From contig DDFD01000015.1 in NCBI GenBank assembly GCA_002337005.1, forward strand, positions 86,755 to 150,754: a stretch of DNA of 64,000 bases. The letters run 5' to 3'. Below the pieces are notes generated by a model. The model was not told the DNA's origin. It worked only from the letters and a program-made list of their open reading frames with translations, and did not search any database. Of the stretch, positions 9,184 through 16,040 are shown one piece after another. This DNA is from Flavobacteriales bacterium UBA1937 (GTDB taxonomy: Bacteria; Bacteroidota; Bacteroidia; Flavobacteriales; Weeksellaceae). The translations under genes were made by a program, and so were the position numbers. Positions within the stretch are counted from its first letter, which is position 1. Every line of letters begins with the position of its first letter.

Positions 9184-9490
9184 TTTTGTTATTTTTAGGT
9201 TAAACATTTTTTTAATTTTTCGCGAAAAATTTTGTGATTTTGGTGCATACTTCTTGCTGTTCGAGTCACTTTTAAGTGTCGATTTTAATAAGGGTAGTCG
9301 TAAAAATTTTAGTTAACTATGCGCTTTTCTCTTTCTTTCTAAAGAGTTTTTCTCTAATGAACATGACGGCTTGTTCAAATAAGATTTTTAGAAATGTGTT
9401 TTCCGTTGTATTTTGTATTTGGTGTTTTGTTTTGATATCTTAAAGGTAATTTACCGTGACGCCAAAACTTGTCGCATTAAAATTTATTTT
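9184..9490 (-). repeat. about 300-bp promoter + long 5' leader module, copy 1 (duplicate of 12921-13230)
   Basis: Roughly 90% or more identical by eye to 12921-13230. Contains an 18-nt perfect palindrome AATTTTTCGCGAAAAATT (9214-9231) and a hairpin TGAACA..TGTTCA (9358-9377). Confidence 0.9.
9441..9482 (-). promoter_or_regulatory. composite promoter, copy 1 (conserved box + 11 nt + TAccTTTA)
   Basis: Minus strand reads TTTTAATGCGACAAGTTTTGGCG, then 11 nt, then TACCTTTA. Same geometry as the five other copies. Confidence 0.65.
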
Positions 9491-9522
9491 AAGAAAAATT
9501 TCATTTTTGGTAATTTTTACTC

Positions 9523-11370
9523 TTAGTCTATTGTAGATTGTAATGCCAACCAGTTTGTACCATCAAATACTCTAATACCAGAATTTCCATTATCTGTTTG
9601 CCAGATCATTTCACCAACCTCTTTATTAATAAGAGCATTTCTTTGTATTTTTGTAAATTCTGGTAATTTTGTTCTATTAGGCTTGATTTTAGCATTAAAT
9701 TTCAAAATGCCGTTGGCCATATCTCCATAAATAAAAGCATCACCTATTGGTACCGCATTATTACCTATTACTAATGTATCATTGAATAATGCAGACTGAC
9801 CACTAGACTTCCCCGCTTCGTAACCTATTAATATATTCCTACTTCCTGTGTAGGAACCGCTTCCAGCTCTCCAACCGATAGCTATACTTTGACTTATAGC
9901 ACCTCCAGTATAAGCCAGTGCATCTGACCCTAAACCTATATTACCATTTCCCGAAGTTATACCATTAAGAGTATTGACTCCAAACCCAGCATTTTCTTGA
10001 CCAGATATATTACTACCAGAACTACTACCATAACAACAATTCCAAGAACCAGTGGCACTAATCATACATGGATAACCCATTGCGGTGTTAAAACCACCAT
10101 TAGCAAAGGCTAAAGCATTGTTCCCTACAGCAATATTATTAGTTCCCCCGTTAAGAATAGCCTTATGACCAATAGCAGTACAATTATTTGAGCTGTTAGC
10201 ATTTCCCATAGACTGAAATCCTATTGCTGTATTCCCTGAACCTGTTACCTGACTTGATAAAGCATATGCACCAATAGCAACACCACCACCAGTAGTATTG
10301 GAAGCCATTGCTCTGTGACCTATAGCGGTATTATATGTGGTAATATTATTTTTCAACGCTTGACTACCTATTGCTGTGCATTCCCAAGTTCCTGTACCTA
10401 TCTTTAATGCTTCATAACCAAAAGAGGTATTATCTTGACCATTGCCAGACTGATCTTGTTGATTTAACACCCCAAAAAATATATTTCTTTTGGAAGCGGA
10501 GGAACCATTAATTCCAAAATAGGATGCTACTGATGGGAATAATAAAGGTTCAAAAGCTATACTTGAATTATTATACCATAATAATCCACTACCATCAGTT
10601 TTTGGCACTAAAGTATTTGGAGTTGGAACAATGGATGTCTGTAATAGAAACTGTGCAGATTTTGCTTTTAAATTATCTGCCTTTAAATTTCCATTGACAT
10701 CTAATTTTTCAGAAGGTTCTCCACTAGTACTGACCCCTAACTTACCATTGTATTGATAAATAATTGAATTATCTAAAACTTTACCACTAGCGCCATTACC
10801 TACTCTTGGTATATTATTAGTATCAGCAACTATTTTACCTTCAAATCTAGCGTATATGTCTTGCGCAGTTCCTGTATATGTCCCTCTATCTAATTTACCA
10901 TCCAATACTGTTTGAAGATTTTGGATATTGTTAATTGCAAAACTAACAGTGGATAAGACATTTCCGACAGAATCTTTCAATTGTAATGTATTTGAGTTTA
11001 GTGATAACTGTGTCCCTACATTCTTTACAAAATCTGTTATAGGAATACTATTTAACAACTCATTATCAGCATTATATAATTCTAAAGATAAAGTAGAAGC
11101 ATTGTATCTCAAATCTGTACCTTCATTATCTAATGATTGTAAAGAAATTTCAGAAATTTTATTACCTAAAGAATCTAATAGTGATAATTTTTTTTCTGTT
11201 GAAGACCACTGCATATTAAAACCCACAGAATTTAATTCTAATCCTTCAATTTTTTCCTTCGGAATACTTTCCTCTTTATGCCAATAAGAGTCTTGCCATT
11301 CCCAAAAATCTTCTTGTTTGGGTTTGTCTCCGTTTTCGAAGACTTTTTTTAGTTCTTGTTTTGATTTCAT
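9523..11370 (-). CDS. fibre-like protein, paralogue 2, with G/N/A-rich (GNxAIG-type) repeat shaft
   Basis: Same N-terminal cassette. Repeats such as NTAIGHRA, GVAIGAYA, NTAIGFQS, CTAIGHKA. C-terminal GEMIWQTDNGNSGIRVFDGTNWLAL module. Start set at MKSKQ (11370); the ORF-track extension to 11406 overlaps the upstream gene. Confidence 0.75.
   Translation of the reverse strand: MKSKQELKKVFENGDKPKQEDFWEWQDSYWHKEESIPKEKIEGLELNSVGFNMQWSSTEKKLSLLDSLGNKISEISLQSLDNEGTDLRYNASTLSLELYNADNELLNSIPITDFVKNVGTQLSLNSNTLQLKDSVGNVLSTVSFAINNIQNLQTVLDGKLDRGTYTGTAQDIYARFEGKIVADTNNIPRVGNGASGKVLDNSIIYQYNGKLGVSTSGEPSEKLDVNGNLKADNLKAKSAQFLLQTSIVPTPNTLVPKTDGSGLLWYNNSSIAFEPLLFPSVASYFGINGSSASKRNIFFGVLNQQDQSGNGQDNTSFGYEALKIGTGTWECTAIGSQALKNNITTYNTAIGHRAMASNTTGGGVAIGAYALSSQVTGSGNTAIGFQSMGNANSSNNCTAIGHKAILNGGTNNIAVGNNALAFANGGFNTAMGYPCMISATGSWNCCYGSSSGSNISGQENAGFGVNTLNGITSGNGNIGLGSDALAYTGGAISQSIAIGWRAGSGSYTGSRNILIGYEAGKSSGQSALFNDTLVIGNNAVPIGDAFIYGDMANGILKFNAKIKPNRTKLPEFTKIQRNALINKEVGEMIWQTDNGNSGIRVFDGTNWLALQSTID
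11243..11370 (-). repeat. near-identical 5' coding cassette of the fibre genes, copy 2
   Basis: See 9056-9183. Confidence 0.9.
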
Positions 11371-11387
11371 AAATAATTGTTTAAATA

Positions 11388-15031: not shown

Positions 15032-15052
15032 TGAAAAACAAAAAAAATGTTT

Positions 15053-15970
15053 TTATGAGAAATAATTTTTCATGCTTTCTTGAAGATGAATTTTAATATC
15101 ATCTATAAGACATTGTGGTTCTAGAACTTTTACTTCTTTTCCGTAAGAAAGAATTTCTTGCATAAAATCATAGGTAGGATGCAGGCACATTTCGAAAATT
15201 ACCTTTTCGCTATTTTCAAAAGTTAATTCTTGGGTAGAATGAAGCGGAAAACTCTTGATGTATTCAGCCTGCTGTTTGGTGCATTCTAAGACGATTTTTA
15301 GAGGATTTTGTTCTTCTAAATTCATCACGCCAAAAGAGTTTTTAAAATGTTCTTTAACATCAATTTTATAATGTTCTCTATAGCTAGCTTTATAAACGTC
15401 TAGATATTTTATTCTGTCTAAACCAAAGGATTTGGTCTTTTGGTCTTTGGTATCTACTGCGATGAGATACCACCTGTCTTTAGATTCTTTTAGAGCTAAA
15501 GGATGTACTTTTCTTTTGGTAATTTTCTGATTAAGAAAACTGAAATGCTCAAATTCTACTACTTTCTTATTTCTGATAGCAAAAAGTAAATCATAAAAAG
15601 AATCTATACCTCTAGGTTTTCTAGGTTCTAAAAAAACAAAATCTGCAAAATCAGGATAGGTATTAATGGCATTGATAATCTGATAAGATTCTAAAAGTCT
15701 TTGATTATATTCATCTACTTCCATTACGGGTCTGCTCGCAATAAAATACCGATTATCTCCCTTTTTTTTATTCTGAATAACAAGATTAAATAAGGAATTA
15801 ATGTCTTTCAAATCTCTCTGCAAGGTTCTTATGGAATATTGATAAATTTTGGCATCTTGAAATTCTCTAGAGTCTAGCAAAAATTGCTCTATCTCCTCAA
15901 AGGTTGCTGGAGAACGCTCAAGTCTTTTAATAATTAATGCATAACGTGCCAAAAAGAAGTCTTTTTTCAT
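15053..15970 (-). CDS. wHTH-WYL-WCX transcriptional regulator (YafY / BrxR / CapW-like architecture)
   Basis: N-terminal HTH region, central DRWYLIAVD + FGLDRI WYL-domain motifs, and a C-terminal extension. 305 aa is the typical size. Confidence 0.8.
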   Translation of the reverse strand: MKKDFFLARYALIIKRLERSPATFEEIEQFLLDSREFQDAKIYQYSIRTLQRDLKDINSLFNLVIQNKKKGDNRYFIASRPVMEVDEYNQRLLESYQIINAINTYPDFADFVFLEPRKPRGIDSFYDLLFAIRNKKVVEFEHFSFLNQKITKRKVHPLALKESKDRWYLIAVDTKDQKTKSFGLDRIKYLDVYKASYREHYKIDVKEHFKNSFGVMNLEEQNPLKIVLECTKQQAEYIKSFPLHSTQELTFENSEKVIFEMCLHPTYDFMQEILSYGKEVKVLEPQCLIDDIKIHLQESMKNYFS

Positions 15971-15999
15971 GGTCTAGAATTGTCGTTTTTTTCTTAGAA

Positions 16000-16040
16000 C
16001 AAAGATAAAATGCTAATGCGTCAAAACGTGACGTATTATA
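16000..16040 (-). promoter_or_regulatory. composite promoter, copy 6 (WYL regulator gene), most divergent box
   Basis: Minus strand reads TATAATACGTCACGTTTTGACG, then 11 nt, then TATCTTTG. The box here is a partial palindrome (CGTCA-N5-TGACG). Confidence 0.55.

Follow-up and report, generated by a model that had tools for sequence, protein, structure and literature searches.

The closest described counterparts of the promoters analyzed here belong to the WYL-domain activators DriD, DdaA, and PafBC. Caulobacter crescentus DriD, a homodimer with wHTH-3HB-WYL-WCX architecture, acts at the didA, driD, bapE, recJ, and dnaG promoters, where its site, ATACGAC(X)7GTCGTAT or in reduced form CGXC(X)7GXCG, overlaps the place of a -35 element and keeps a constant distance to the -10 element; no -35 element is recognizable there. 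DriD contacts the alpha-CTD while sigma-4 docks on the opposite DNA face, and 68 of 69 DriD homologs have a site in their own promoter. [quoted passage not shown] PafBC of mycobacteria and actinobacteria, which works by sigma adaptation and is heterodimeric or a fusion, reads DNA through PafB alone and at one half-site; its consensus is tGTCgg(N10)tA(N3)T, with GTC at -27 to -25 (the "-26 element"), and its promoters are hybrids of a canonical -10-type element and an activator element that replaces the -35. In the published WYL tree the activators and the repressors form separate clades. In Bacteroidota, the TAnnTTTG element of sigma-A promoters spans -12 to -5 (PMC9723704), and promoters are able to fire without the -33 element.

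The window, by which we mean the whole 64-kb stretch of DNA analyzed, contains on its minus strand six copies of a composite element consisting of TAATRCGWCRNGTTTTGRCG, 11 nt, and TAnnTTT(G/A), each with no mismatches to the pattern, where shuffles of the 64 kb give an expectation of 0.00. The 16-nt core alone, with up to two mismatches allowed, returns the same six sites (0.32 expected in 64 kb), and a scan of the 64 kb with a PWM built from 140 sites finds none besides these. The sequence-only reading, which had placed the repeat at these six positions and nowhere else in the 64 kb, is borne out on both counts, with the caveat that a direct repeat of 300 nt (9192-9491 and 12932-13231, 94% identity) carries promoter and leader together and holds the sites at 9442-9479 and 13182-13219; because these two share one duplication, the independent sites number five, not six. 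The spacer is exactly 11 nt in 6/6 sites, and the TTTG within the box lies 14 nt from the TA of the -7 element, at -30 to -27, both as had been described. The final base of the -7 element is G in five of the six sites and A in the one at 9442. Conservation had also been proposed to continue about 15 nt further upstream; a tract is present there, but it is A/T-rich and weakly phased, with 0.3-1.1 bits per position. Compared with the canonical Bacteroidota sigma-A promoter, the -7 element is the same in sequence and, we infer, in position, whereas no element was found at about -33 in the window sites, where the only TTTG is the one inside the regulator site. The proposal that these promoters form a class of their own, distinct from housekeeping promoters and with a regulator site built in, is supported.

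The promoters, genes, and terminator of the locus lie on the minus strand, and starts were predicted by setting TAnnTTTG at -12 to -5 and taking the A at box position 44 (present in 78% of the 140 sites). Promoter 1 (16001..16038; TAATACGTCACGTTTTGACG, 11 nt, TATCTTT(G); predicted start A 15995) precedes the gene for a 305-aa DriD/PafBC-like wHTH-WYL-WCX regulator (15053..15970), which is followed, as had been noted, by an intrinsic terminator (15000..15030; ATCCGCC-CCGAAAA-GGCGGAT) whose stem at 15030-15010 has seven pairs, five of them G-C, and leads into a T-run. All six promoters were recovered by both pattern and PWM. Promoter 2 (14955..14992; predicted start A 14949) precedes the gene for a 166-aa endolysin-like Peptidase_M15_4/VanY protein (14428..14928; Pfam 2.9e-16, PHROG endolysin 7.9e-27) with no evident signal peptide on inspection of its N-terminus by eye, and orthologs of this peptidase lie behind the box in 10 loci among the matches listed. 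Promoter 3 (14380..14417; predicted start A 14374) serves a 346-aa patatin-like phospholipase of the CapV-like effector type (13315..14355; Pfam Patatin 7.5e-27, PADLOC "Effector phospholipase" 1.6e-66). The TTG at 14403 proposed by the ORF tool as the patatin start falls inside the box and was rejected in favor of the ATG at 14355.

Promoter 4 (13280..13317; predicted start A 13274), which begins with the stop codon of the patatin gene, is the upstream member of a tandem pair with promoter 5 (13182..13219; predicted start A 13176), 98 nt downstream. The two would drive a single transcription unit (9523..13176) that the ORF map resolves into a 229-nt leader (12948-13176), an acidic 69-aa ORF (12738-12947), and two fibre-like genes with matches to tail fibre/spike PHROGs (413 aa, 11388-12629; ~615 aa, 9523-11370). 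Promoter 6 (9442..9479; -7 element TACCTTTA; predicted start A 9436), the copy of promoter 5 in the 300-nt repeat, would likewise drive a single unit (1751..9436) with a leader (9208-9436), a fibre-like gene of 558/566 aa (7507-9207), and ORFs of 169 aa (6979-7488), 1559 aa (2131-6810), and 117 aa (1751-2104). Boxes do stand before the fibre units, at promoters 4, 5, and 6, but neither of the two fibre-like genes in the first unit (11388-12629 and 9523-11370) has its own box; both lie behind the double promoter at 13317/13219. Read by eye, the N-termini of the fibre-like proteins and the 1.2-1.6 k-aa protein show no apparent signal peptide. Among the matches listed, 11-12 loci with the box have orthologs of the 1559-aa and fibre-like genes.

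More than 200 copies of the box are found in Chryseobacterium, Elizabethkingia, Cloacibacterium, Kaistella, and Epilithonimonas, and its range is the Weeksellaceae, in keeping with the phyletic spread of the regulator. Three matches outside this phylum differ in their spacers and are ascribed to chance. With the general core CG.C-N7-G.CG, the spacer to TA..TTT is 11 nt in 206 sites and 12 nt in one among the matches listed; other apparent spacings were rejected as reverse-strand readings of the same palindromes. Among sites not picked by the scan pattern, it is 11 nt in 43/43 of those that have TAnnTTT. At the free positions of 140 unique sites the box reads RCGWCR at 5-10 and YGDCGY at 16-21, with degeneracy at positions 5 and 10 (R), 8 (W), 18 (D), and 21 (Y); spacer positions 25-29 carry 0.07-0.14 bits, and position 39, in the -7 element, is G in 91% of the family sites. 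The nGTTT(T/C) spacer, the 5' TAAT, and the A/T-rich upstream tract are asymmetric and always oriented toward the -7 box, as expected if polymerase reads the complex directionally.

As sequence, the box core CGWC-N7-GDCG is the published DriD/DdaA site. The six window sites and the 140 related sites all have the CGXC-N7-GXCG pseudo-palindrome with A/T-rich spacer that characterizes WYL-activator sites, and they hold it at a fixed distance in the place of the -35, with no canonical -35 or -33 element, as in the DriD promoters. By our count of the published didA and driD oligos, GGCG/GTCG is followed by 11 nt and CAAGGT/CAATCT, the same spacer as here, and the GxC-N12-TA distance of the window sites is identical to the GTC-N12-TA distance of PafBC. 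[quoted passage not shown] Unlike the DriD site, the Weeksellaceae box also carries a 5' TAAT that does not vary and a GTTTTG spacer of fixed orientation, and the host sigma-A reads a TAnnTTTG -7 element. In contrast with the single half-site of PafBC, a full dyad is present here together with one regulator gene, which implies a homodimer, as for DriD.

The 305-aa protein contains Pfam WYL (3.9e-13) and WCX (5.3e-10) domains, and its AF2 model (pLDDT 81) and profiles place it nearer to DriD/PafBC than to CapW/BrxR: Foldseek E-values are 7e-14 for DriD, the best structural match, 4e-13 for PafBC, 6e-9 for CapW, and 1e-8 for BrxR, and in a PDB profile search PafBC is the best sequence match (1.6e-14), followed by DriD (about 1e-12) and BrxR (2e-4). 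TM-scores of the model against full-length DriD are low (0.44-0.47), with a different domain orientation and ~18% identity in the structural alignment. No sequence alignment of its wHTH to that of DriD was obtained. Its putative recognition helix, R48-T49-L50-Q51-R52-D53, has R48, T49, Q51, R52, and D53 invariant in 26 homologs, and R48/R52 would correspond, by pattern rather than by residue-level alignment, to the base-reading arginine pairs of DriD (R37-T38-x-E40-R41; R37/R41) and PafB (R46/R50). The Arg-x3-Arg pair is also widespread in other YafY-type HTH domains. In an HMM alignment, five of the seven DriD ssDNA contacts that could be mapped are kept (R178~R153, Y192~Y168, K202~K178) or conservatively replaced (R204~K180, W206~F182), and two are lost (R176~T151, R207~G183).

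Orthologs of this protein share 60-70% identity across Chryseobacterium, Elizabethkingia, Epilithonimonas, and Cloacibacterium, and each ortholog gene examined, in the window and at loci L047, L020 (4011), L125 (5485), L126 (~3870), and L128/L129 (9922), has the repeat, 11 nt, and TAnnTTTG upstream. In Parafilimonas (L130, 8803) the same repeat, spacer, and -7 element head the operon of the ortholog, and a site at the regulator's own gene is found in five genera. At the WYL genes of L047 and L020 this site is exactly ATACGAC-N7-GTCGTAT. As with DriD, the site lies within the regulator's own promoter, and its presence in every ortholog context examined fits the autoregulation that had been suggested. 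The WYL protein is the best candidate for the regulator.

Among the matches listed, 131 of 147 sites target a downstream ORF at a median distance of 137 nt, and identical gene families recur behind the box in different species. Judged from sequence, the family-wide regulon would comprise T9SS cargo, M15 peptidase, CapV-like patatin, fibre-like proteins, toxins, and prophage antirepressor operons. On a viral contig, early operons with a RecE-like exonuclease and an anti-repressor (Ant/Rha, 1.5e-17) lie under the box, in favor of a link to DNA damage; prophage antirepressor operons placed there give the one, indirect hint of activation stimulated by ssDNA or DNA damage. Occurrence at many unrelated promoters genome-wide had been named as the outcome that would undo the idea of a dedicated class, and the box is indeed widespread in Weeksellaceae genomes, but behind a restricted, recurrent set of genes, which points to a regulon rather than general promoters. 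Among the matches listed, clustering of the first ORF downstream of each site (131 ORFs) and sampling of these with Pfam revealed no recognizable DNA-repair gene, though weak sites at repair genes could escape the strict pattern of the collection scan; in this the ORFs sampled differ from the DriD, DdaA, and PafBC regulons, that of DdaA including recA, uvrA/C, and ssb.

We consider it probable, at roughly 70%, that a DriD/PafBC-like activator, probably triggered by ssDNA, substitutes for the -33 contact at some six units in the window and across a family-wide regulon. The 38-nt unit would be a hybrid promoter in which an imperfect inverted repeat, RCGWCR-N5-YGDCGY, which spans about -38 to -24 and has half-site centers separated by 11 bp, fills the place of the -33 element ahead of a sigma-A TAnnTTTG at -12 to -5. 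A dimer of the 305-aa protein is predicted to bind the repeat, with R48 and R52 of its recognition helices reading the guanines of CGxC/GxCG, and to recruit or adapt RNA polymerase as DriD, DdaA, and PafBC do, so that transcription would start at the A 5 nt past the -7 G. By analogy, the trigger would be ssDNA bound by the WYL domain, as in DNA damage or phage replication. The putative targets are, in the window, its own gene, the endolysin-like M15 peptidase, the CapV-like patatin, and the two fibre-like/large-protein units, and, across the Weeksellaceae, T9SS-secreted proteins, toxin-like genes, and prophage antirepressor operons.

A different sign of regulation would follow if the WYL protein were a CapW/BrxR-like repressor that occludes a -7-only promoter and leaves the DNA on binding ssDNA; the sequence-only reading had likened its autoregulation to that of BrxR/CapW-type repressors. 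BrxR and CapW share its domain architecture, are autoregulated, and reside in defence islands, CapW senses ssDNA, and the patatin under the box is of the CBASS effector (CapV-like) type. WYL regulators beside defence islands are typically repressors, and the adjacency of the WYL gene to such an island, the usual habitat of that clade, speaks against an activator. Since the -33 element is dispensable in Bacteroidota, a protein at -38 to -24 could equally repress; the -7 elements are near consensus, as the frequent G at position 39 attests, and induction by ssDNA would give the same outcome under either sign. The box does not match the published operator type in sequence or position, however, the CapW operator being TAAAAACTGATCGTATAATAATGCTACGCT and that of BrxR consisting of 11-bp arms with a 5-bp spacer downstream of the -10. 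Moreover, the model is about five orders of magnitude nearer DriD/PafBC by Foldseek E-value, in a family whose activator and repressor clades are separate, and nothing about an operator requires a spacing kept in 206/207 sites and shared with the activator promoters of two further phyla. BrxR and CapW control the adjacent defence operon, whereas the defence island at 17-27 kb (HNH PDC-M62B, AAA_21, Lhr-like helicase, BrxC/D, TerB_C, BRCT) has no box at up to three mismatches. The DriD/DdaA core and PafBC-like distance, together with the predicted structure, make the BrxR/CapW comparison probably wrong, and we regard repression as unlikely.

We think it improbable that the WYL gene is a mere member of the regulon and that the box is read by another protein, whether a sigma factor (alternative or ECF) or a dimeric transcription factor of a different kind. 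The 5' TAAT and GTTTTG spacer are conserved beyond what the published DriD/DdaA motif needs, and the regulon content is unlike that of known WYL activators, both in favor of such a reader. The downstream element is nevertheless the sigma-A -7 consensus at its normal position; the features of an ECF or alternative sigma promoter, a distinct -10 such as CGT and a non-palindromic -35, are absent; and the upstream element is a dyad with half-sites spaced by 11 bp, which suggests an HTH protein that binds as a dimer. Its core, moreover, is the same as the sites determined by experiment for three WYL activators, and the WYL gene has a site in every genus examined, at the edge of a box-rich cluster. 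A dispersed repeat or miniature mobile element with incidental promoter-like sequence and no dedicated regulatory role, which the two window copies in the 300-nt duplication and tandem 99-nt arrays elsewhere (L036, L094) might suggest, is very improbable and largely refuted by the conservation pattern, as outside duplications conservation is restricted to functional positions between unrelated flanks, and nearly all sites aim at downstream ORFs, with the same families recurring in different species.

With a DriD/PafBC-like activator, a known mechanism of WYL activation appears to be extended to a new phylum and tied to lysis, toxin, and fibre-like genes. A broader picture, which we offer tentatively as possible though doubtful, is that Weeksellaceae and at least some Chitinophagaceae mount an ssDNA/DNA-damage response through a DriD-like WYL activator on the unusual sigma-A of Bacteroidota, with conflict rather than repair as its main output. 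In that case the M15 peptidase and the cyclase-less CapV-like patatin would form a self-lysis cassette, the fibre-like and 1.2-1.6 k-aa proteins might be a tail-less, lysis-released bacteriocin or an abortive-infection module, and operons for T9SS cargo and RHS-like toxins would be numerous among the outputs. The TTTG of the spacer would be a -33 contact shifted from its usual place, which sigma-4 would read on the DNA face away from the activator, and the antirepressors of resident prophages would be wired to the box in place of LexA/CI logic.

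Scanning the window with TAATRCGWCRNGTTTTGRCG-N11-TANNTTT returned six minus-strand matches with 0 mismatches, at 16001-16038, 14955-14992, 14380-14417, 13280-13317, 13182-13219, and 9442-9479 (promoter units 1 to 6, each joining the putative regulator site, or box, to the Bacteroidota sigma-A -7 element TAnnTTTG), while dinucleotide-preserving shuffles gave none. The 16-nt core alone, allowed up to two mismatches, found no sites in the window beyond these six, and a PWM built from 140 related sites located no seventh in the 64 kb. The six-fold repeat is real and highly non-random, and the sequence-only reading, which had described six copies, an invariant 11-nt spacer between box and -7 element (6/6 window sites), no further box in the 64 kb, and an intrinsic terminator separating the WYL gene from the unit that follows (minus strand, 15030-15010 plus a T-run in a terminator scan), is borne out on these points. 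All six sites are genuine, but the number of independent sites is five, because 13182-13219 and 9442-9479 fall inside one 300-nt direct repeat (9192-9491 and 12932-13231, 94% identity). Conservation had also been claimed to continue upstream of the boxes; a tract is present there, but it is A/T-rich and only weakly phased. The six promoters, one regulator, and one terminator all lie within 7 kb. The TAnnTTTG box of Flavobacterium psychrophilum runs from -12 to -5 (PMC9723704), and therefore position 44 of our alignment, which is A in 78% of 140 unique sites and in all six window units, is the predicted transcription start, placing the starts on the minus strand at 15995, 14949, 14374, 13274, 13176, and 9436. 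In the terminator scan the promoter 1 box also came up on the plus strand (16014-16038) as a terminator-like hairpin, an artefact of a dyad with an A/T tract after it.

The box is an imperfect inverted repeat, RCGWCR-N5-YGDCGY (that is, CGWC-N7-GDCG), with a 21-bp core of which ATACGACGAGTTTTGGCGCAG is an example, and its dyad matches the published sites of two WYL activators, those of DriD in Caulobacter, ATACGAC(X)7GTCGTAT, with CGXC(X)7GXCG and an A/T-rich gap in the promoters of 68/69 DriD homologs (PMC10853764, PMC13004042), and of DdaA in Moraxellaceae, CGWCA-N5-TGWCG (PMC12392091). The sites ahead of the WYL genes in two related loci outside the window, L047 and L020, read exactly ATACGAC-N7-GTCGTAT, as in DriD. 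In the box, GDC occupies positions 17-19 (-27 to -25) and TA positions 32-33, 12 nt apart, which equals the 12-nt distance from GTC to the -10 TA in the in vivo PafBC consensus tGTCgg(N10)tA(N3)T, known in sigma adaptation as the "-26 element" (PMC8635444). The DriD sites all share a single fixed distance from the -10 and overlap the -35 position, with a recognizable -35 absent (PMC13004042), and by our own count the didA/driD promoter oligos of that study carry GGCG/GTCG, 11 nt, and CAAGGT/CAATCT. The equal distance from half-site to -12 in three phyla suggests that activator-polymerase stereochemistry is conserved. A sigma-54 reading of TTGGCG was rejected, the GG/GC spacing being unsuitable and most family members having TGTCG. 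TAATACGAC resembles the start of the T7 promoter, a resemblance that we dismiss because the fixed-distance TAnnTTTG and the dyad symmetry indicate bacterial RNAP and a dimeric factor. Covariation of positions 8/18 amounts to a weak excess of symmetric pairs and gives no evidence for a hairpin at the dyad.

The 305-aa protein encoded downstream of promoter 1 has WYL and WCX domains. In the case of a profile of 26 homologs compared with the PDB, the best matches were PafBC (1.6e-14) and DriD (~1e-12), with BrxR at 2e-4, and the structures nearest to the AlphaFold model (pLDDT 81) were DriD (7e-14) and PafBC (4e-13), followed by CapW (6e-9) and BrxR (1e-8). The N-terminal 121 residues had no meaningful match in the PDB by sequence. 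Recognition-helix residues R48-T49-L50-Q51-R52-D53 are invariant, and R48/R52 fit the base-reading pairs R37/R41 of DriD and R46/R50 of PafB, by pattern alone, as the wHTH could not be aligned at the sequence level. Orthologs are 60-70% identical across Weeksellaceae and ~50% in Chitinophagaceae, and the regulator gene sits at the edge of the same cluster of M15, patatin, and fibre or large-ORF genes in Cloacibacterium, Chryseobacterium, and Epilithonimonas. The repeat, 11 nt, and TAnnTTTG precede the regulator gene or its operon in all contexts examined (the window and the related loci L047, L020, L125, L126, L128/129, and L130), which fits autoregulation, and the idea of an autoregulated WYL regulator holds; at these own-gene sites the dyad is retained and the TAAT and GTTTT are relaxed. 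In L130, from Parafilimonas (Chitinophagaceae), a 52%-identical WYL ortholog lies within a GmrSD/AAA/DUF2779 defence island, CGxC-N7-GxCG-N11-TAnnTTTG stands ahead of three units including its own AAA-WYL operon (sites at 1737, 6938-6952, and 8803), and at one palindromic site a -7 box follows after 11 nt on either strand.

The best-supported reading is that the WYL protein is a DriD/DdaA/PafBC-type activator, with binding and activation predicted, and not a repressor of the BrxR/CapW type to which the sequence-only reading had likened it. Bacteroidota promoters are able to fire without a -33 element, which would suit the same protein acting as a repressor, but against this stand the kinds of operator that CapW and BrxR use, the structural ranking of DriD/PafBC ahead of CapW/BrxR, the invariant spacing, which the box shares with activator promoters, and the adjoining defence genes, none of which (17-27 kb) has a box. 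Together these genes make up a defence island (17282-26815) immediately upstream of the WYL gene, encoding an HNH protein (PADLOC PDC-M62B, 1.4e-46), a BrxC/D-family ATPase (1.2e-146), an AAA_21 ATPase, a DEAD/Lhr-like helicase, a TerB_C protein, and a BRCT protein. That a different factor or an alternative sigma reads the box is disfavoured by the sigma-A type of the -7 element and by the dyad, and a mobile repeat by the position-specific conservation, with spacer positions 25-29 at 0.07-0.14 bits. As an activator, a homodimer of the WYL protein would bind the dyad at about -38 to -24 and would recruit or adapt RNAP-sigma-A at a promoter whose -7 element is good and which lacks a -33 element at the usual place. 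More speculatively, the oriented GTTTTG spacer (TTTG at -30 to -27) and the A/T-rich upstream tract could provide contacts for sigma-4 and the alpha-CTD; in DriD complexes sigma-4 is positioned across from the wHTH, and DriD itself makes contact with the alpha-CTD. The analogy to DriD, PafBC, and CapW makes single-stranded DNA the likely trigger, though only tentatively, since no more than 5/7 of the ssDNA contacts that could be mapped are retained or replaced by similar residues.

The box is a regulon-wide composite promoter and is not confined to this locus. Scanning a single genome from each species with TAATNCGNCNNGTTTTGNCG-N(9-13)-TANNTTT gave matches on at least 119 DNA stretches; among the matches listed, nearly all are in Chryseobacterium, Elizabethkingia, Cloacibacterium, Kaistella, and Epilithonimonas, where the spacer is 11 nt except for one of 12 nt, and three in other phyla, with spacers of 9 or 13 nt, were set aside as chance. 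In the loci analysed the looser core CG.C-N7-G.CG has TA..TTT at exactly 11 nt in 206 sites; spacings of 7-10 and 12-16 nt with this core proved to be the same palindromes read on the reverse strand, into the A/T-rich tract upstream, the sole exception being a 12-nt case in a poly-C run (L118). Among sites unselected by the scan pattern, all 43 of the 43 having TAnnTTT show 11 nt. Even at positions left free by the pattern, the 140 unique sites admit only a restricted choice (R at positions 5 and 10, W at position 8, D at position 18, Y at position 21), and 91% have G after TTT. Full promoter units (A/T tract, box, 11 nt, -7 element, and ~55 nt) also occur in tandem arrays with a 99-nt period, at L036 4971-5960, L094 ~6250-6750 (plus-strand coordinates), and the start of L077, with 10 copies in Chryseobacterium sp. 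sg2396 and 5 ahead of a 730-aa ORF in a Chryseobacterium MAG. The 99-nt unit contains no convincing ORF; such arrays may represent promoter amplification or an activator sink.

The window is bacterial chromosome, and its WYL protein is 92% identical to the counterpart in a Cloacibacterium MAG, with which the locus is syntenic (L047/L065). Besides the regulator, box-bearing genes encode an M15 endolysin-like peptidase (166 aa) and a patatin phospholipase of CBASS-effector type (13315-14403 with the mechanically called start; 1.6e-66 against PADLOC "effector phospholipase" models), with no cyclase nearby, and two further box-bearing units together encode a small acidic protein, three fibre-like proteins, and ORFs of 169, 1559, and 117 aa. 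PADLOC did not recognize the box cluster as a known defence system, matching only the patatin effector and generic WYL models. The mechanical patatin start, TTG 14403, falls inside a box, and the start is likely ATG 14355; the patatin stop TAA (13317-13315) forms the first three bases of the next box. The fibre-like proteins have in common a 43-aa N-terminal module, MKSKQELKKVFENGDKPKQEDFWEWQDSYWHKEE..., whose coding sequences are 129-nt repeats with 85-98% identity (9055-9183, 11242-11370, and 12501-12629), and differ at their C-termini; a related stretch lies at 5983-6009 within the 1559-aa ORF. No signal peptide was evident at their N-termini, read by eye, and no sheath, tube, or capsid genes lie near them. 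Tandem box promoters 98 nt apart (13182-13317) precede the small acidic ORF and the fibre-like unit, a pairing kept across genera (97-99 nt in three and 91 and 129 nt in two of L047, L065, L066, L054, and L128). A 229-nt leader is duplicated along with the promoter (9208-9436 and 12948-13176, 94% identity), is confined to Cloacibacterium (L047, L065), and contains a 29-aa ORF, MKKKFLKILFEQAVLFIREKLFRKKEKSA, in 3/4 copies. Its reading as a structured RNA was not supported (z = -1.09, with a single compensatory pair among four copies that are nearly identical), Rfam matched nothing in the leader, region, or window at gathering or E-value thresholds, and no tRNAs were found.

Clustering of the first ORFs downstream of 147 sites gave a T9SS-sorted protein of ~530 aa (37 loci), M15 peptidase (10 loci), a 230-aa protein with function unassigned (7 loci), and a small acidic protein (6 loci). 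The gene after the ~530-aa T9SS protein is faintly RHS-like in the single locus checked (L022), and other products downstream of boxes include patatin, DUF2589, fibre-like, C39-peptidase, and beta-helix proteins, ORFs of 1250-1559 aa, and a Dcm methylase. In Epilithonimonas hungarica (L129), ADP-ribosyl (ADPrib_exo_Tox) and Tox-MPTase4 toxin-domain genes adjoin the regulator; with small neighbouring ORFs they occupy 5901-8374, between the WYL gene and the cluster's large ORFs, giving the cluster a polymorphic-toxin flavour. No recognizable repair gene stood under a box among the matches listed for the strict pattern. On the viral/prophage contig IMGVR_UViG_3300018914_000003 the box promoter heads early operons (viral-contig boxes at L002 ~13614-13651 and L006 7867-7904) that encode an Ant/Rha anti-repressor (phrog_63, 1.5e-17), a KilA-N-like regulator, and a RecE-like exonuclease. 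This placement suggests that the box promoter responds to a prophage-inducing kind of signal, and that phage induction is wired to the host WYL regulator. The predicted regulon is unusual in being oriented to conflict and lysis.

WYL activators that replace the -35 contact are described from Actinomycetota (PafBC), Alphaproteobacteria (DriD), and Moraxellaceae (DdaA), and a narrow literature search found none published in Bacteroidota. In Bacteroidota both the primary sigma factor and the promoter grammar are divergent, and the locus offers a compact test bed. The result also yields a predicted regulon with predicted base-level starts for the clinically relevant Elizabethkingia and Chryseobacterium, and it points to a likely inducing signal for prophages and for dozens of uncharacterized T9SS, toxin, lysis, and fibre-like genes.
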